Made by a program: the position numbers and the translations under genes
The notes under the pieces: generated by a model
The model's database searches: none
Told to the model about the DNA's origin: nothing
Seen by the model: only the letters and a program-made list of their open reading frames with translations
NCBI RefSeq assembly: GCF_016026235.1
Contig: NZ_CP065613.1
Origin: Escherichia coli
GTDB lineage: Bacteria > Pseudomonadota > Gammaproteobacteria > Enterobacterales > Enterobacteriaceae
Length of the DNA: 64,000 bases
Strand: one strand, 5' to 3'
In this document: in pieces, positions 5,726 to 31,364 of the stretch
Numbering within the stretch: position 1 is the first letter of the stretch
Layout: every line of letters starts with the position of its first letter

Positions 5726-6784
5726 TTATTCAGGCGTAAAGTGGCGTAAATGTTGTACCGTGGCAAGCCACGCTGCCACCCAGCCAATCATCGAGCATAC
5801 CAGCAGCAATAGCAGGCATTCATCGAACGATAAACCATTGATATCAAACTTCGTTCCGAAAACCTGTGCCACTTCCGCAACCGCCGATGACAATCGCAGC
5901 ACCAGAATTTCTGACAAAATTAATGACAACAATGCGCCAGAAAATCCCAGCAGTGCGCCACCGTACAGGAACGGACGCAGGATGAAACCATCCGTCGCAC
6001 CAATCAGTTTCTGCACGTTAATGGAGTCACGGCGAGCAAAGATACTCAGGCGCACACTGTTACCGATGACGAGGAACACTGCCGCCACCATCAACACGCC
6101 GATCATCGCCGAAACGCGCCCGACCAGCCCGGTCAACGCCGCCAGACGGGCAAACCAGCTGTCATCCATCCGCACTTCGTCAATGCCGTTAATCTGCGTG
6201 ATACGATCACGCAGCGTATTGAGTGATTCCGTCCCCTGAAAATCGAGTTTCGGGATCACCACCGCCACTGCCGGAAGCGGGTTTTCTTCCAGCATATCCA
6301 GCGCACCACCAAAACCAGACCAGTTACGGAACTCGCCCAGTGCGTCTTCACGAGAAAGATAGTTCACTTTCTCCACGCCTTGCTCGGCCTGCAACTGTGC
6401 CACCACGCCCGCAGCAGCGTCATCGTCCAGCGTTTTTTGCAAGTAAACAGTGATTTGCGGTGACGGATAATACTGCGTCGCCGCCTGGTTAACGTTTTTG
6501 TACACCATATAACAGACGCTGGGCAGCGTCAGGGAGATGGCGATAACCATCACCGTTAAAAACGTGGCGAACGGTTTGCTTTTCAGATCTTGCAATGCGC
6601 CGTGGAAGGCATAGCGCACCTGTTCGTTGAAAACGTTGGTTTTGCGATTTATCGGTTTTGGCGAGGATTTCGCACGTTTCGGCGCGTTACGACCGCCGTC
6701 GCCAGAGCCGCCGACCGATTTACGGAAGCGATCAAGACGCCCGCCAAACTGCCGAATATGATTGATTGCATCGCGCTTATTCAT
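5726..6784 (-). CDS. ftsX: Cell division ABC transporter permease-like protein FtsX
   Basis: ORF 5726..6811; start placed at ATG 6784 ([20 protein letters not shown]...), 352 aa; 8-nt overlap with ftsE end. Confidence 0.92.
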
Positions 6785-20871: not shown

Positions 20872-23675
<2,804 letters not shown>

Positions 23676-23824
23676 CACCTACCAACGCGCCGTTATTTCC
23701 TTACGGCGCAGTAAACTTCTGACACATATCGACTCACGTCACATTTTTTTGATCACGATTTGGTCCCTCAAAATGTGAGACGCTTCGATCCTCTTTTTCT
23801 CCCGTTCACCTACTATACGCTTGA

Positions 23825-23852
23825 AGTTGTCCATGATTGTCCATAGACAACT
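23825..23852 (+). promoter_or_regulatory. Candidate operator: 7-bp inverted repeat plus tandem TTGTCCAT half-sites immediately upstream of the GntR-family regulator
   Basis: AGTTGTCcatgaTTGTCCATaGACAACT located 13 bp upstream of the regulator ATG; function inferred only. Confidence 0.3.
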
Positions 23853-23864
23853 GTAAATGTTCAG

Positions 23865-24620
23865 GTGCGCGCCATGAAATCATTAAGTAAGTCGTCACAA
23901 ATACCGCTCTATCAACAAGTGGTGGAGTGGATAAGAGAAAGTATTTATACCGGAGATCTGGTGGAAGACGATCGCATTCCTTCGGAATACCAGATTATGG
24001 ATATGCTGGAAGTGAGTCGGGGAACCGTTAAAAAAGCGGTCGCCCAACTGGTAAAAGAAGGCGTGTTAATACAGGTCCAGGGTAAGGGAACATTTGTCAA
24101 AAAAGAGAACGTGGCATATCCGTTAGGTGAAGGATTATTGTCATTCGCGGAATCGCTGGAAAGCCAGAAAATACATTTTACCACTGAAGTTATTACGTCA
24201 CGGATTGAACCAGCTAATCGTTATGTGGCAGAGAAATTAAGAATAACTCCCGGTCAGGATATTCTTTACCTTGAACGCTTACGCTCAATTGGTGATGAAA
24301 AAGCGATGCTGATAGAGAACCGTATCAATATTGAGCTATGCCCCGGTATTGCGGAAATCGATTTTAATCAACACAATTTATTTCCAACAATAGAAAGTTT
24401 GTCGCAAAGAAAAATTCGTTACTCGGAAAGTCGCTATGCCGCGCGATTAATTGGTAATGAACGTGGTCATTTTTTAGATATCAGTGAAGACGCACCCGTT
24501 TTGCATCTGGAGCAGTTAGTCTTTTTCTCCCGAGGATTACCCATTGAGTTTGGCAACGTCTGGTTAAAAGGAAATAAATATTATCTTGGCACCGTACTGC
24601 AACGGCGGGAAGTGAGTTAA
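23865..24620 (+). CDS. GntR/HutC-family transcriptional regulator (wHTH + UTRA effector domain)
   Basis: 251 aa; N-terminal IPSEYQIMDMLEVSRGTVKKAVAQLVKEGVLIQVQGKGTFV is a typical GntR HTH; alternative ATG at 23874. Confidence 0.8.
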   Translation: MRAMKSLSKSSQIPLYQQVVEWIRESIYTGDLVEDDRIPSEYQIMDMLEVSRGTVKKAVAQLVKEGVLIQVQGKGTFVKKENVAYPLGEGLLSFAESLESQKIHFTTEVITSRIEPANRYVAEKLRITPGQDILYLERLRSIGDEKAMLIENRINIELCPGIAEIDFNQHNLFPTIESLSQRKIRYSESRYAARLIGNERGHFLDISEDAPVLHLEQLVFFSRGLPIEFGNVWLKGNKYYLGTVLQRREVS

Positions 24621-24644
24621 GTACACTTTTTTAAGAGGAATAAA

Positions 24645-25118
24645 ATGCAAGGCATACATTTTCAGGAAAATTATATTCAACGACTTCCGGCAGGGTTAAG
24701 CGTTGAACAGATCATCCGTCAGTTAGCGCAACCGTTGGTTGCCGCCGAGCTGGTCGTCCCTGATTTTGCCGATCACGTACTGAAACGTGAGGAGACGTAC
24801 CCAACGGGGCTGCCTACCGAACCACCGTGCGTCGCTATTCCGCACACGGACCATAAACATGTCAGGCACAATGCAATTGCCGTCGGCATCCTGCCGGAAC
24901 CGGTAGAGTTTGCCGATATGGGCGGCGATCCTGACCCCGTACCTGTCAGGGTGATTTTTTTGCTCGCCTTAAGCGAAAGTAATAAACAATTAAATGCCCT
25001 GGGCTGGATTATGGAAATGATTCAGGATACGCCCTTTATGCAAGCCCTGCTTGCGATGGAAACAACAGAAATACACACAGTAATCTTAAACAAAATGAAA
25101 GAACGAGGTGAAATATGA
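24645..25118 (+). CDS. PTS EIIA component (EIIA-2, mannitol/fructose/Ntr-type fold)
   Basis: 157 aa; active-site motif VAIPHTD (phosphorylatable His). Confidence 0.8.
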   Translation: MQGIHFQENYIQRLPAGLSVEQIIRQLAQPLVAAELVVPDFADHVLKREETYPTGLPTEPPCVAIPHTDHKHVRHNAIAVGILPEPVEFADMGGDPDPVPVRVIFLLALSESNKQLNALGWIMEMIQDTPFMQALLAMETTEIHTVILNKMKERGEI

Positions 25119-25396
25119 GTCAAACCATTTTATTTGTCTGCGCCACGGGTATTGCCACATCCACGGCGGTAACAGAAAAAGTCATGGAATATTGTAAAGA
25201 GCACGGTCTTAACGTCAATTATTCCCAAACCAACGTTGCCTCTTTACCTGGAAATACTGATGGCGTAGCACTGGTAGTCTCAACGACTAAAGTGCCTTAT
25301 GAACTCGACGTCCCGGTAGTTAACGGCTTGCCGATTATTACCGGTATTGGCGAAGAGAAAGTACTGGCGCAAATTGTTTCGATCCTTAAAAATTAA
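25115..25396 (+). CDS. PTS EIIB component, galactitol (GatB)-type
   Basis: 93 aa MSQTILFVCATGIATSTAVTEK...; N-terminal Cys-containing phosphotransfer motif as in GatB/SgcB. Confidence 0.8.
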   Translation: MSQTILFVCATGIATSTAVTEKVMEYCKEHGLNVNYSQTNVASLPGNTDGVALVVSTTKVPYELDVPVVNGLPIITGIGEEKVLAQIVSILKN

Positions 25397-25472
25397 TTAA
25401 TAATAATTAATTTCAACCCACTCCATCAGGCGCTAACGCGAGGTGCGCTCTCGCCTGAAAAAGAGGTTTATT

Positions 25473-26831
25473 ATGAACGATATCGCGCATACCCTCTATA
25501 ATATTGTGCAATATATATTGGGATTTGGCCCGACGGTAATGTTGCCGTTGGTGTTATTTATTCTTGCTCTCTGTTTTAAAGTAAAACCCGCTAAAGCCTT
25601 ACGTTCGTCATTAACAGTCGGCATTGGTTTTGTCGGTATTTATGCCATTTTCGATATTCTGACCAGCAATGTCGGGCCAGCGGCCCAGGCGATGGTTGAA
25701 CGCACCGGAATTAATTTACCGGTGGTAGATTTAGGCTGGCCGCCGCTTTCCGCTATTACATGGGGTTCGCCAATTGCCCCGTTTGTTATTCCCCTGACCA
25801 TTCTGATTAACGTGGCGATGCTGGCGTTAAATAAAACCCGTACCGTTGACGTAGATATGTGGAACTACTGGCATTTTGCCCTTGCTGGTACGTTGGTTTA
25901 TTACAGCACCGGCAGCCTGTTCTTTGGTTTGCTGGCGGCGGCGATTGCTGCGGTGGTAGTACTTAAACTCGCCGACTGGTCTGCGCCACTGGTACAAAAA
26001 TACTTTGGACTGGAAGGGATCTCATTGCCGACGCTCTCTTCGGTGGTGTTCTTCCCGGTCGGTCTGCTGGTCGACAAAATCATCGACCATATCCCCGGCC
26101 TCAATCGTATTCATATCGACCCGGAAACCGTACAGAAAAAGTTTGGCATCTTCGGCGAACCGATGATGGTTGGCACTATTCTGGGCATACTGCTCGGCGT
26201 GATTGCAGGATACGATTTCAAAAAAGTGTTGCTGCTTGGCATCAGCATTGGCGGTGTGATGTTCATCCTGCCACGCATGGTTCGCATCCTGATGGAAGGT
26301 TTATTACCGCTGTCTGAAGCCATTAAAAAGTATCTCAATGCCAAATACCCTGACCGTGACGATCTCTATATCGGACTGGATATCGCCGTTGCCGTAGGTA
26401 ATCCGGCGATTATCTCCACCGCCCTGCTGCTAACGCCAATCTCGGTCTTTATCGCGTTTGTCCTCCCAGGTAATGAAGTCCTGCCGCTTGGCGACCTTGC
26501 CAACCTGGCGGTAATGGCGTCGATGATTGCTTTAGCCAGCCGTGGCAATATTTTCCGCACCGTTCTGGCGGCGATCCCGGTGATTATTGCCGACCTGTGG
26601 ATTGCGACTAAAATCGCACCGTTTATTACCGGCATGGCGAAAGACGTTAACTTCAAATTTGCCGAAGGCTCCAGCGGCCAGGTTTCCAGTTTCCTTGATG
26701 GCGGTAACCCGTTCCGCTTCTGGCTGCTGGAAATCTTCAACGGCAATATCATCGCCATTGGTCTGGTGCCGGTTATCGCCCTGGTACTGTATGGCATTTT
26801 CCGAATGACGCGGAGCACGGTTTATGCCTGA
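25473..26831 (+). CDS. PTS EIIC permease, galactitol (GatC) family
   Basis: ORF 25443..26831; start placed at ATG 25473 after AAAGAGG RBS; motifs LGFGPTVMLP, GIGFVGI, GPAAQAM, DLGWP, IPGLNRI, KFGIFGEP, LPLGDLA, GNIFRT align to GatC as I recall it. Confidence 0.85.
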   Translation: MNDIAHTLYNIVQYILGFGPTVMLPLVLFILALCFKVKPAKALRSSLTVGIGFVGIYAIFDILTSNVGPAAQAMVERTGINLPVVDLGWPPLSAITWGSPIAPFVIPLTILINVAMLALNKTRTVDVDMWNYWHFALAGTLVYYSTGSLFFGLLAAAIAAVVVLKLADWSAPLVQKYFGLEGISLPTLSSVVFFPVGLLVDKIIDHIPGLNRIHIDPETVQKKFGIFGEPMMVGTILGILLGVIAGYDFKKVLLLGISIGGVMFILPRMVRILMEGLLPLSEAIKKYLNAKYPDRDDLYIGLDIAVAVGNPAIISTALLLTPISVFIAFVLPGNEVLPLGDLANLAVMASMIALASRGNIFRTVLAAIPVIIADLWIATKIAPFITGMAKDVNFKFAEGSSGQVSSFLDGGNPFRFWLLEIFNGNIIAIGLVPVIALVLYGIFRMTRSTVYA

Positions 26832-28332
26832 TAACAGCGCAGCTATCGTTATCGATATTGGCACCACCAATTGCAAAGTCACCTGCTTTTCCTGCCTGGA
26901 CGCAACGACGTTGGGCGCGCATAAATTCGTGACGGCAAAGCAGATCTCCCCACAGGGCGATGTCGATTTCGATATCGACGCCCTCTGGCAGGAGGTCCGC
27001 CAGGCGATAGCGCAACTGAACGCCGCTTCGCCGCTGCCAGTCAGACGGATCAGCATTGCCAGTTTTGGCGAATCAGGCGTGTTCCTTGACGAGCATGGCG
27101 AGATCCTGACGCCAATGCTGGCATGGTATGACCGTCGCGGTGAAGAGTATCTGGCAACGCTTAGCGAGGCAGACAGTGCGGCACTTTATGACATCTGCGG
27201 TCTACCACTACACAGCAATTACTCTGCCTTCAAAATGCGCTGGTTGCTGGAACATTACCCGCTGCGTAATCGCCGCGGCCTGCGCTGGCTACATGCGCCG
27301 GAAGTGCTGCTCTGGCGGCTGACTGGCGAACAGCGCACGGATATCACCTTAGCCAGCCGCACGCTGTGTCTGGACGTGCGCAAAGGCGAATGGTCAGCGA
27401 AAGCGGCGGCGTTGTTACACGTTCCCTGTACGGCATTTGCGCCATTGGTGCAGCCAGGCGAGCACGCCGGATGGGTCAGCGAGTCACTTTGCAAGACGCT
27501 TGGGTTCTCGCAACCGGTCAGCGTGACGCTGGCCGGACATGACCATATGGTGGGTGCGCGAGCGTTGCAGATGATGCCAGGCGATATCCTTAACTCGACG
27601 GGGACCACGGAAGGCATTCTGCAACTGGATACACAACCGACGCTGGATGAACAGGCCAAACGTGACAAGCTGGCAAACGGCTGTTACTCACTTGCCAACC
27701 AGTTCACCCTGTTTGCGTCGCTGCCCGTGGGCGGTTTCGCGCTGGAGTGGCTGCGCAACACGTTCCGGCTAACCGATGAGGAGATCGCCGCATCACTTAC
27801 TCGCGGACATGCTGATTATCTGGCGGGGAATTGGTTGCTCGATGACATTCCCGTCTTTATTCCACATCTTCGCGGTTCGGGTTCGCCCTATAAAAATCGC
27901 CATACCCGTGGATTATTTTATGGGCTTGGCGATACGTTAAGTATCGACATGTTAATTGCCAGCGTATCACTGGGATTAACCATGGAATTTGCCAACTGCT
28001 TCGCCTGTTTTAACGTGCCTGGCACCAGCGCGTTAAAAGTGATCGGTCCGGCAACCCATAATCCTCTTTGGCTGCAATTAAAGGCGGATATTTTACAGCG
28101 TCCGGTTGAAGCAATTGCATTTAACGAGGCGGTTTCTGTCGGAGCATTATTAACCGCCGCACCGGATATTCCACCGCCGCCAGTCGCTATAGCCCAACGT
28201 TTGTTACCGAATCGGGCGAGATACCATCAATTACAGCGTTATCAGCACAAATGGAAAAGCTGGTATCAGTTGAAATTACAACAAGAAGGCGTGATGCCAT
28301 TACATCATCGGGAGGAACACTATGTTGAATAA
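26824..28332 (+). CDS. FGGY-family carbohydrate kinase (substrate unknown)
   Basis: 502 aa; N-terminal AIVIDIGTTNCK, FGGY signature-1-like YSAFKMRWLLEH, C-terminal GTSALKVIGP; 8-nt overlap with EIIC gene. Confidence 0.75.
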   Translation: MPDNSAAIVIDIGTTNCKVTCFSCLDATTLGAHKFVTAKQISPQGDVDFDIDALWQEVRQAIAQLNAASPLPVRRISIASFGESGVFLDEHGEILTPMLAWYDRRGEEYLATLSEADSAALYDICGLPLHSNYSAFKMRWLLEHYPLRNRRGLRWLHAPEVLLWRLTGEQRTDITLASRTLCLDVRKGEWSAKAAALLHVPCTAFAPLVQPGEHAGWVSESLCKTLGFSQPVSVTLAGHDHMVGARALQMMPGDILNSTGTTEGILQLDTQPTLDEQAKRDKLANGCYSLANQFTLFASLPVGGFALEWLRNTFRLTDEEIAASLTRGHADYLAGNWLLDDIPVFIPHLRGSGSPYKNRHTRGLFYGLGDTLSIDMLIASVSLGLTMEFANCFACFNVPGTSALKVIGPATHNPLWLQLKADILQRPVEAIAFNEAVSVGALLTAAPDIPPPPVAIAQRLLPNRARYHQLQRYQHKWKSWYQLKLQQEGVMPLHHREEHYVE

Positions 28333-28591
28333 AACCGTGGAGGTCAGAAACAGTACTGGCCTGCATGCACGTCCGGCGGCCTGTCTGGCGAAAGCCGCCA
28401 AAAAATATAGCTGTAAAGTGACGCTGCACTATGAGGGTAATGATATTAATGCCACCAGCATGATGAATATTATGCGCGCCGGAATAAAAGGCGGAAAAAC
28501 GGTGGAAATACGCTGCGACGGTGATGATGAAAACGAGGCCATACAGACTCTCACCGACTTATTTCGCGACCGCTTCGGTGAAGCTGAATAA
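28322..28591 (+). CDS. HPr-family phosphocarrier protein (operon-specific paralog)
   Basis: 89 aa MLNKTVEVRNSTGLHARPAACLAKAAKKY...; His-15 motif GLHARPA. Confidence 0.8.
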   Translation: MLNKTVEVRNSTGLHARPAACLAKAAKKYSCKVTLHYEGNDINATSMMNIMRAGIKGGKTVEIRCDGDDENEAIQTLTDLFRDRFGEAE

Positions 28592-28622
28592 TTAACTGAT
28601 ATTAAAAGATGAGGTTTTCAAT

Positions 28623-29483
28623 ATGCCATTAGTTAATGGACGGATACTGCTCGACCGCATTCAGGAAAAACGGGTATTAGCGGGCGCATTTAATACCACC
28701 AATCTGGAGACGACAATTTCAATTTTAAACGCTATTGAGCGTTCGGGATTACCCAACTTCATTCAGATTGCGCCAACCAATGCACAACTCTCGGGATACG
28801 ATTACATTTATGAAATCGTGAAACGTCACGCCGATAAAATGGATGTTCCGGTCAGTCTTCATCTGGATCACGGGAAAACTCAGGAGGATGTGAAACAGGC
28901 GGTGCGCGCGGGCTTTACCTCGGTCATGATTGACGGTGCCGCATTCTCTTTTGAAGAGAATATCGCTTTCACCCAGGAAGCTGTCGATTTCTGTAAATCC
29001 TATGGTGTACCGGTTGAAGCGGAGCTGGGGGCGATTCTCGGCAAAGAAGATGATCACGTCAGCGAAGCCGATTGCAAAACGGAACCGGAAAAGGTGAAGA
29101 CCTTTGTCGAGCGTACCGGTTGCGACATGCTGGCAGTTTCTATTGGCAACGTTCATGGCCTGGACGATATACCGCGTATCGATATCCCCCTGCTGAAGCG
29201 CATTGCCGAAGTCTGTCCGGTGCCGTTGGTTATTCACGGCGGCTCCGGTATCGCCCCGGAGATATTACGCAGCTTTGTTAATTATCGCGTCGCTAAAGTA
29301 AATATCGCCAGCGATCTGCGCAAAGCGTTTATCACCGCCGTCGGCAAAGCGTATGTGAATAATCACAACGAGGCGAATCTGGCACGAGTCATGGCATCAG
29401 CAAAAAACGCCGTCGAGGAAGATGTGTATAGCAAAATCCTGATGATGAATGAGGGGCATCGGTTGGTTAGAAAGGCATCTTAA
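28623..29483 (+). CDS. Class II ketose-bisphosphate aldolase (GatY/KbaY/FbaA family)
   Basis: 286 aa; metal-binding motifs LHLDHG and IHGGSG. Confidence 0.85.
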   Translation: MPLVNGRILLDRIQEKRVLAGAFNTTNLETTISILNAIERSGLPNFIQIAPTNAQLSGYDYIYEIVKRHADKMDVPVSLHLDHGKTQEDVKQAVRAGFTSVMIDGAAFSFEENIAFTQEAVDFCKSYGVPVEAELGAILGKEDDHVSEADCKTEPEKVKTFVERTGCDMLAVSIGNVHGLDDIPRIDIPLLKRIAEVCPVPLVIHGGSGIAPEILRSFVNYRVAKVNIASDLRKAFITAVGKAYVNNHNEANLARVMASAKNAVEEDVYSKILMMNEGHRLVRKAS

Positions 29484-29495
29484 GAGCCACAAAAA

Positions 29496-29530
29496 TATAG
29501 CGGCGCAACAGAAATTGTTGGGCCGCTATA
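29496..29530. terminator. Hairpin terminator between convergent aldolase and hicB-like genes
   Basis: TATAGCGGC-gCAACAgaaatTGTTGg-GCCGCTATA, 9-bp outer stem with nested inner palindrome. Confidence 0.6.
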
Positions 29531-29532
29531 AG

Positions 29533-29892
29533 TTATAAATGATTCAAACGCTCATTCAGTGTTTCAATAATATAGGTATTAACAGAGACTTGTTGCTGCG
29601 CAGCCGCATTATTAAGGCGTTCACTCAGCGATTCTGGATAGCGTAACGTAAAGGTCTTAATCTTTTCTGTACGCGCATACGGCTCAATACCCGCAGCTTT
29701 ACAATCCTCAAGATACTCTAGCAGGGAAAGTTCCCCTTCTTTTTGCAGCCCCTGAATGCTGTCAGAGACAAAATCACAATAACCTGACAAGCCCAGGAAT
29801 TTGCCACGAAATGCATTCAGTTCTGGCACGTAAGTGATAACAGCAGGTTGCCCGGCAATCTCCATTGAGTTTGGCGTCTTCAGTTTGATCAT
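29533..29892 (-). CDS. HicB-like antitoxin (C-terminal ribbon-helix-helix-like DNA-binding tail)
   Basis: 119 aa MIKLKTPNSMEIAGQPAVITYVPELNAFRGKFLGLSGYCDF...RYPESLSERLNNAAAQQQVSVNTYIIETLNERL; 4-bp overlap with upstream small ORF. Confidence 0.6.
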   Translation of the reverse strand: MIKLKTPNSMEIAGQPAVITYVPELNAFRGKFLGLSGYCDFVSDSIQGLQKEGELSLLEYLEDCKAAGIEPYARTEKIKTFTLRYPESLSERLNNAAAQQQVSVNTYIIETLNERLNHL

Positions 29893-30164
29893 GGTTTTAC
29901 CCCTATACTTAGTAACCAGTCACGCACGCTTTCTACAGCGCCTTTATCGGTATCTGGCGACGGATGAGGCCGATGGAAACACGCAACGCTCATATTTAGT
30001 ATGAACTTACAACGCGAACCTCTTCCTTCCTTAATTTCTCCGCCTAATGCTTTAACCTGTGACTCTATATCAGACCACTTGATCCCTTGAGGAACAGGAG
30101 TTTTAAATATTTGATCCAATGTATTTTTTTGTTTCTTCCGTAAAGCCTGTACCTTGGTTCTCAT
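29889..30164 (-). CDS. HicA-like mRNA-interferase toxin
   Basis: 91 aa; ...WSDIESQVKALGGE...GSRCKF...HRPHP...AVESVRDWLLSIGV resembles HicA (W-x-ES...GS...PRHP...) pattern; upstream of and overlapping the HicB-like gene. Confidence 0.55.
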   Translation of the reverse strand: MRTKVQALRKKQKNTLDQIFKTPVPQGIKWSDIESQVKALGGEIKEGRGSRCKFILNMSVACFHRPHPSPDTDKGAVESVRDWLLSIGVKP

Positions 30165-30176
30165 GGCATGTCCTTA

Positions 30177-30224
30177 TGACTTCACTTTATGACATCAATA
30201 GTATGACATCACAGTATGAAGTCA
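30177..30224 (-). promoter_or_regulatory. Candidate promoter/operator of the hicAB-like pair: 8-bp inverted repeat flanking two TATGACATCA direct repeats
   Basis: TGACTTCActtTATGACATCAatagTATGACATCAcagtaTGAAGTCA, immediately upstream of the toxin start codon. Confidence 0.4.
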
Positions 30225-30236
30225 AGTTTCCCTTCC

Positions 30237-31364
30237 TTACGCCATTGTCCCAATCGTCTTCCTGAATCGCAGCAGTGCGATGGTGAAAAACGCGCCGCCA
30301 ATTGCCATCAGCGTCAGGAACTGCGGCCAGACGATTTCGAATCCGGCACCCCGGTAGAGAATGGCCTGCGCGAGGCTAACAAAGTGTGTCGTCGGCATGG
30401 TCAGCATAATGTCCTGCACCATCTGCGGCATACTTTCGCGCGGCGTGGATCCACCGGAAAGCATTTGCAGCGGCAGCAGCACCAGAATCACCAGCAGCCC
30501 CAGTTGCGGCATTGAACGCGCTATCGTCCCCATAAAAATGCCGATTGACGTGGTGGCAAACAGACTGAGCGCCACGCCCAGCATAAACAGCGGGATCGAG
30601 CCTTCAATCGGTACGCCCAGCACGCCTTTCACCATCAGCACCAGCGATAATCCCGATACCACCAGCACCACTAGCCCCATCGACCAGACCTTCGCCATCA
30701 TGATCTCAAACGGCGTTATCGGCATCACCAGTAAGTGTTCCACCGTGCCGTGTTCACGCTCGCGGATCAGCGCCGATCCGGTCAATACAATCGCCAGCAT
30801 GGTAATGTTGTTGATGATTGCCATCACCCCGCCAAACCACGCGGGGTCGAGGTTCGGGTTAAAGCGCATCCGGGTTTCCAGCGATACCAACGGTTCGCTG
30901 TTATCACGGTAGCGCGCGACAAAGCTGTTCACTTCACCGTTGATAATATTCTGGATATACCCGTTGCCGGTAAATGCCTGGCTCATGCGCGTGGCATCGA
31001 CGTTCACCTGAATATCCGGCTGGCGTCCGGCGAGGACATCACGCTGAAAATTAGGCGGAATATTTATCGCAAAGGTATAGCGTCCGGCGTCCAGTCCGGC
31101 ATCCATCTCATCGGCGGTGATCATCTCCGGTGGCAAAAACCACGGGCGATAGAAGCTGTTAACGATCCGGTTCGATAACTGCGATTGATCCATATCGGCA
31201 ATGGCGATCGGCGCGAGGTTCAACGATCCTGGCGTGACGGTCGCTGACGAATACACCGACACCGTAAACGAGAAGACAATCAGCGTTAGCATCGCTTTAT
31301 CACCGAGCAGACTGCGCAACTCTTTGATACCCAGATTAAAAATATTGCGTAAATGGCGCATCAT
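30237..31364 (-). CDS. yhhJ: ABC-2 type transporter permease YhhJ
   Basis: ORF 30237..31445; start placed at tandem ATG ATG (31364/31361) directly after GGAGGG and overlapping rbbA stop; [26 protein letters not shown]... Confidence 0.88.

Follow-up and report, generated by a model that had tools for sequence, protein, structure and literature searches.

The gene pair analyzed here, which lies in a 64-kb stretch of an Escherichia coli chromosome (the window), is in all likelihood a self-contained type II HicAB toxin-antitoxin cassette of ~0.7 kb. Its architecture is ordinary and it is already annotated, RefSeq naming the two products "type II toxin-antitoxin system HicA family toxin" (WP_001259387.1) and "HicB family antitoxin" (WP_000593554.1). 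Only one feature goes further than existing knowledge, namely the clade-wide loss of the histidine that is essential in every studied HicA toxin. In practical terms the stakes are small: standard pipelines recognize the locus as an ordinary accessory toxin-antitoxin cassette. The cassette (Table 1) is flanked on one side by nikR and an island with GntR, PTS, FGGY-kinase, HPr, and aldolase genes and on the other by yhhJ-rbbA-yhiI.

Table 1. Features of the hicAB locus, in window coordinates
Feature	Position	Strand	Remarks
hicAB cassette, independent insertion/deletion unit	29522..30236	-	Window aligned with E. coli loci L083 (no PTS island) and L082 (no hicAB)
Likely intrinsic terminator of hicAB	29489..29530	-	Hairpin then U-run, directly 3' of the hicB stop; RNA fold
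hicB-like antitoxin gene	29533..29892	-	119 aa; ORF, PF05534, phrog_9151, WP_000593554.1
hicA-like toxin gene	29889..30164	-	91 aa, basic; GSR at 49-51, FHRPHP at 63-68; Q36 in the window copy
Shine-Dalgarno-like AAGGA	30171..30175	-	6 nt 5' of the hicA ATG; read from the sequence
Operator box 1, TGACTTCA on + strand	30177..30184		5' leader; abuts the AAGGA ribosome-binding site
Operator box 2, TGACATCA	30190..30197		Just 3' of -10, around the expected transcription start (predicted near 30191)
Operator box 3, TGACATCA	30204..30211		Promoter spacer, adjoins -10
Operator box 4, TGAAGTCA on + strand, TGACTTCA on coding strand	30217..30224		Overlaps -35; conserved in orthologues
Predicted -10 hexamer TACTAT	30198..30203	-	Promoter scan; between boxes 2 and 3
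Predicted -35 hexamer TTGACT	30220..30225	-	Promoter scan; inside box 4
Predicted sigma-70-type promoter, TTGACT-16-TACTAT	30225..30198	-	Promoter scan; 9/12 consensus matches

Proteins, genes, and operator of the cassette

The initial annotation had proposed a HicA/HicB-like pair, and profile searches bear this out. The toxin matches the Pfam model HicA_toxin (PF07927) over residues 30-80 (i-E = 1.8e-8, 34.8 bits) and the antitoxin matches HicB (PF05534, E = 3.5e-15), and the PHROGs families (phrog_8887 "toxin," 1.9e-25, and phrog_9151 "HicB-like antitoxin," 1.7e-12), the predicted folds, with solved HicA and HicB structures as their matches, the gene pairing, and the RefSeq names agree with this assignment. 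PF07927, which with COG1724 represents the HicA family, is also precomputed on all full-length homologues of the toxin. A scan of NCBIfam matched no model for the toxin and gave only a sub-threshold BrnA hit for the antitoxin (E = 0.22). phmmer with the toxin found no match among PDB sequences at E up to 10 and likewise detected no similarity to K-12 HicA, and the profile of the toxin clade reached the solved HicA structures only marginally, at E of about 1. Since the sequence matches to solved HicAs are this marginal, the fold had to be compared. The AF2 model of the toxin, built on 111 homologues (pLDDT 96.9), has the layout H-H-H-E-E-E-H, in which a two-helix N-terminal extension (residues 1-29) precedes an α-β-β-β-α dsRBD-like core (residues 30-86). 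The predicted core has the α1-β1-β2-β3-α2 order of the dsRBD-like HicA fold, and the model strongly supports a HicA toxin that carries a clade-specific helical extension at its N terminus.

For the antitoxin, a paired alignment of 47 loci served to model HicA and HicB joined by a linker. The pTM of 0.68 gives moderate support for the interface and suggests a defined arrangement of HicA and HicB. The antitoxin part is predicted as a β-β-β-β-α N-terminal domain (fusion residues 124-182, pLDDT above 90) followed by two C-terminal helices; the best Foldseek matches of the fusion model are HicB from Burkholderia pseudomallei (6g26_B, probability 0.99), HicB3 from Yersinia pestis (4p78_A, 0.84), TTHA0281 (2dsy), and 6g1c_B, all with weak E-values of 0.046 or higher, and the RHH of AtaR is also matched. 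At the C terminus, weak Pfam matches to Arc (0.018) and CopG_antitoxin (0.024) are joined by clade-profile matches to the Arc repressor (E = 0.012) and AmrZ (0.021), and together with PF05534 they point to the ribbon-helix-helix (RHH) of HicB proteins. These predictions strongly support an antitoxin with an Arc-like RHH tail (about residues 76-118), which would bind DNA, and suggest that its N-terminal part is a partial RNase H-like domain (about residues 8-66), which would bind the toxin.

With hicA first and a HicB that ends in an RHH, the window hicAB falls in class 4 as defined by Gerdes (PMC10865869). The class 4 systems HicA3-HicB3 of Y. pestis and HicAB of B. pseudomallei (PDB 4p78 and 6g26) share its gene order, with overlapping or closely coupled genes, the RHH of HicB, and repeated operator sites that overlap the promoter, and they have the partial RNase H-like N-terminal domain that is predicted for the window HicB. 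However, the window toxin is ~30 residues longer than these HicAs, with a conserved N-terminal helical extension, its similarity to them in sequence is marginal, and only the window subclade uses TGACTTCA as its operator box. K-12 HicAB (hicA/yncN-hicB/ydcQ; PDB 6hpb) also differs: it belongs to class 3 and lies at an unrelated locus, its HicB ends in a helix-turn-helix rather than an RHH, and its HicA, to which phmmer finds no similarity, has 58 residues and a catalytic His23 (GSNH). The C-terminal 45 residues of the window HicB align with Arc, and the DNA sites of Arc/CopG/MetJ-type repressors are short tandem pseudo-palindromes separated by about one turn of the helix; in contrast to these repressors, the RHH of HicB is fused to a predicted toxin-neutralizing domain, and its target boxes would be TGAnnTCA.

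Every coordinate that the initial annotation had given for the reading frames, their overlap, and the upstream repeats holds, with the qualification that both frames lie on the minus strand, so that the repeats are upstream in that sense only. The two genes overlap by 4 bp (29889-29892), where ATGA serves as both stop and start, an arrangement that strongly supports translational coupling. The hicA ATG is separated from the yhhJ stop codon (30237) by 72 bp, and the repeats are found in this gap. The cassette spans the two genes together with their promoter and operator and a portion of the terminator, and it ends at the yhhJ stop codon. The predicted terminator hairpin has a folding energy of -21.2 kcal/mol (z = -4.84), and none of 200 shuffled sequences folded equally well; a scan for consensus terminators did not pick up this hairpin, and an Rfam scan of positions 29000-30800 returned no RNA family. 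The yhiI-rbbA-yhhJ operon runs in the same direction only 72 bp 5' of hicAB, and the nearest terminator-like site, the only one nearby, lies inside the yhhJ coding sequence (30313..30296), so that read-through transcription into hicAB is possible.

The upstream repeats had been described as an 8-bp inverted repeat, TGACTTCA/TGAAGTCA, that encloses two direct repeats of TATGACATCA (30188-30197 and 30202-30211), expected of an autoregulatory operator. The autoregulatory reading stands, since the boxes lie on the promoter and are conserved in orthologues; the description does not, as the region is better resolved into four boxes of one kind. Four TATGAnnTCA units start at 30175, 30188, 30202, and 30215, at spacings of 13, 14, and 13 bp, and share an 8-bp core, TGAnnTCA, which reads TGACTTCA and its reverse complement TGAAGTCA in the outer units and TGACATCA in the inner two. 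TATGAnnTCA occurs four times in the window against 1.55 expected, all four within 50 bp, and a rough Poisson estimate puts the chance of such clustering at about 1e-9. There is thus strong support for four boxes, 13 to 14 bp apart, that extend from the predicted -35 element through the spacer and the expected transcription start into the 5' leader. Orthologous loci agree: every one of the 23 loci from Enterobacterales and Pasteurellaceae has TGACTTCA or TGAAGTCA upstream of hicA, usually with two copies at the -35 element, separated by 13 bp, and two more 3' of the -10 element, and the -35 hexamer TTGACT likewise falls within a TGACTTCA box. Over 80 related loci, the two words occur 49 times in 11.5 kb upstream of hicA (4.24/kb) versus 13 times in 456 kb elsewhere (0.028/kb), an enrichment of about 150-fold. 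At the level of sequence, these observations support a predicted autoregulatory operator within the hicAB promoter.

In the L083 lineage, a natural 14-bp deletion of 30188-30201 removes exactly one operator unit (TATGACATCAATAG), and with it box 2, and the resulting three-box operator re-forms a plausible promoter (TTGACT-16-TAAAGT). More distant members of the clade (L025-L081) have no TGACTTCA box, and words such as GGTACTA, AGTACCA, and ATGGTAC are enriched upstream of their hicA genes instead. This suggests that distant members use a different operator that covaries with the RHH of their HicB, as would be expected if the operator coevolves with the RHH.

Distribution of the clade and possible role

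The toxin belongs to a clade of more than 1,000 clusters at 50% identity, with relatives in more than 500 species (one genome per species). The 80 loci that we fetched from this species-level scan represent Enterobacterales, Pasteurellaceae, Neisseriaceae, rhizobia, cyanobacteria, Deferribacteres, and Verrucomicrobia. In 78 of them, hicA is followed directly by a HicB-like gene, usually with a 4-bp overlap. Mobile elements carry the toxin as well, with 223 records from plasmids and 51 from phages, among the latter Ralstonia phage Dina and Burkholderia phage ST79. A literature search on the GSR clade, named here after the motif at residues 49-51, and on the two RefSeq accessions found no paper, and the clade appears to be experimentally unstudied. 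The studied systems that were checked lie outside it: Sinorhizobium meliloti SMc04441 retains the conserved histidine (PMC6327479), Neisseria gonorrhoeae HicA has 60 residues and His24 (PMC12297915), and the HicAB of IncI2 plasmids has a PF15919-type HicB (PMC11878559). A study of O157:H7 MC2 discusses hicA/hicB with reference to K-12 HicAB only (PMC5854682). Within both families, several records (P0052, P0055, P0058, P0078, P0094, and P0307) carry legacy misannotations, namely "hexulose-6-phosphate synthase," "uracil DNA glycosylase," and "DNA repair protein." The top match of the representative search, P0121, was rejected as a relative of the toxin: its 1,981 residues consist of a 66-residue unit repeated 28 times in tandem, and it appears to be a translated DNA repeat array.

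We infer that HicB would dimerize through its RHH, bind the TGAnnTCA boxes, and repress hicAB, while its N-terminal domain would cap the RNA-binding face of the toxin. Once HicB is broken down or outnumbered, the unbound toxin would bind and probably cleave RNA, which would lead to growth arrest. A role in abortive infection or phage exclusion, which would be compatible with the toxin-antitoxin reading, could be built on the same steps, in that a phage that shuts off host transcription, for example, would deplete HicB and release the toxin. The cassette occupies a variable hotspot, in which other strains have rhsB and an IS element, members of the clade reside on temperate phages of Ralstonia and Burkholderia and on many plasmids, PHROGs classes them as morons, and Gerdes has argued from gene contexts for a defense role of HicA domains (PMC10865869). 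However, no defense family in PADLOC-DB v2 matched the toxin or the antitoxin at E up to 1, and the cassette is flanked in the window by an ABC-transporter operon and genes of sugar metabolism, with no recognized defense genes beside it. On balance, we regard an antiphage role as rather unlikely.

The histidine missing from the toxin

In canonical HicAs, the catalytic histidine stands at the start of β2 in a G-S-H motif (H23 in E. coli, H24 in B. pseudomallei, H28 in Y. pestis, H36 in Streptococcus pneumoniae, and H24 in N. gonorrhoeae). The window toxin has Arg51 there. In the profile alignments, the residues that face its GS-R are GS-H in Y. pestis HicA3 (His28) and GS-A in the B. pseudomallei HicA that was crystallized as the H24A mutant. 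The initial annotation had noticed that the motif at residues 49-54 reads GSRCKF and had suspected a noncanonical RNase; the canonical histidine is indeed absent and the active site noncanonical, although the residue aligned with the histidine is Arg51 and not Cys52. We assessed conservation on 144 representatives of the clade, clustered at 50% identity. Position 51 is arginine in 138 of them, so the loss extends across the clade. Position 52, in contrast, is hydrophobic and varies (V in 99, I in 24, R in 9, and M in 3 of the 144; Cys in the window copy), and Cys52 was therefore rejected as an alternative catalytic residue. Two other histidines are retained almost throughout, H64 in 141 and H67 in 139 of the 144 representatives, and Pro66 and Pro68 are nearly invariant; R51, H64, P66, H67, and P68 each exceed 90%.

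The predicted structure offers a possible explanation of this pattern. In the model, β2 (residues 51-56) and β3 (residues 59-64) form a hairpin with a two-residue turn, which would make Arg51 and His64 cross-strand neighbors, as judged from the strand register only. At the position of His64, canonical HicAs have threonine in the alignment; the Y. pestis and B. pseudomallei toxins, for instance, have the catalytic His28 and His24 and a threonine in β3, whereas the window clade has Arg51 and an invariant His64. The most likely hypothesis is thus a histidine relocated to His64 on the adjacent strand and assisted by Arg51, which would fill its old place, rather than a dead enzyme. The counterpart of His67 in the gonococcal toxin, the histidine of the PHP motif, can be replaced (H40A) and toxicity is unaffected (PMC12297915), so a histidine at this position is not automatically catalytic. 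We propose, tentatively, that the GSR HicA clade could be a mechanistically distinct branch of the family in which the end of β3, and no longer the start of β2, provides the catalytic histidine, Arg51 fills the vacated position, and a conserved N-terminal helical extension was added; we see this as a possibility more than as a probable outcome. If it is true, the clade could differ from the characterized HicAs in chemistry or in RNA target, for example through Arg-assisted cleavage or through ribosome-dependent cleavage of the RelE type. Either way, a very large clade, which includes pathogenic O157:H7 and O145 strains of E. coli, does without the one residue that all mutagenesis studies call essential, and R51, H64, and H67 provide a cheap test case for the mechanism of HicA, that is, for a moved active site versus a different mechanism.

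The opposite explanation is that the toxin is catalytically dead and that the pair persists either in decay or as a small DNA-binding complex under its own control, in which HicB would repress and HicA would serve as corepressor or bind RNA. In its favor, arginine replaces the β2 histidine, and that histidine is described as essential in every HicA tested, namely E. coli H23, B. pseudomallei H24, Y. pestis H28, S. pneumoniae H36, the S. meliloti toxin, N. gonorrhoeae H24, and H31 of phage Adephagia gp91 (PMC11594946, PMC12297915). The state of hicA in E. coli could be read in the same way. The window toxin is full length and carries Gln36 (codon 30057-30059, minus strand), where 133 of the 144 representatives have leucine. 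Exact 31-mer matching places the Gln36 allele in 44 complete genomes of E. coli, O157:H7 TR01 and O145 RM9872 among them, compared with 1,223 for the Leu allele, and this rare L36Q substitution may attenuate the window toxin, leaving it weak or inactive. Beyond this allele, decay of hicA is common across E. coli lineages. A 55-aa frameshift product (P0095), broken at GS|R, is found on 588 contigs, P0071 and P0072 are further frameshift products of hicA, and in the L083 lineage (locus positions 6368-6700, no PTS island) a TAA stands at codon 2, directly after the hicA ATG, with the gene annotated at 76 aa. In these records with a decayed hicA, hicB is annotated as intact.

Yet loss of function in the toxin alone is also what would be expected if the toxin is harmful, and several observations argue against a dead enzyme. 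The conservation of R51, H64, P66, H67, and P68 above 90% in a clade with relatives in more than 500 species suggests selection on a specific active surface rather than drift after inactivation. The pairing with hicB is strict, with translational coupling, in the 78 of 80 loci, and the clade travels on plasmids and phages as active addiction or defense modules do. We therefore consider a catalytically dead toxin improbable as an account of the clade and prefer the tentative relocation of the histidine to His64.

The nikR-yhhJ interval

In complete E. coli genomes, the interval between nikR and yhhJ (window 23675-30237) occurs in four arrangements. The window has the PTS island together with hicAB; E. 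coli EC11 (L083) has hicAB directly beside nikR and no island; in a third arrangement (L082), the island stands beside yhhJ and ~90 bp of REP-like sequence replaces hicAB; and a fourth (L084), as in K-12-like strains, has neither and instead contains rhsB-yhhH-ISEc1. The interval is thus an integration hotspot of E. coli, in which the ~0.7-kb hicAB cassette is an accessory element independent of the PTS island. Wherever it is present, the cassette abuts yhhJ and not the island, and its left boundary lies inside its own terminator hairpin. Because it ends at the yhhJ stop codon in every arrangement that contains it, it is best seen as an independent unit. Roughly 2,070 genomes carry it.

Toxin-antitoxin modules are known to stabilize mobile DNA, and the cassette sits at the edge of the island in the window, from which the initial annotation had suggested that it may stabilize the neighboring GntR/PTS/kinase/aldolase island as an addiction element; this is contradicted by the occurrence of all four combinations of island and hicAB in complete E. 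coli genomes, among them the island without hicAB and hicAB without the island, and by a cassette position that adjoins yhhJ and offers the idea no support, so that we hold it to be highly improbable. A toxin-antitoxin cassette that is gained, lost, and inactivated independently of its neighbors at a single hotspot argues against inferring island stabilization from a place at the edge of an island.

Strain FDAARGOS_943 (L001 6474-9432, compared with window 23865-26831) matches the window without a difference across the kilobase that contains hicAB. In its island, the genes for the GntR regulator and PTS IIC are annotated as pseudogenes, through an internal stop and a frameshift, respectively; both reading frames are intact in the window (251 and 462 aa).
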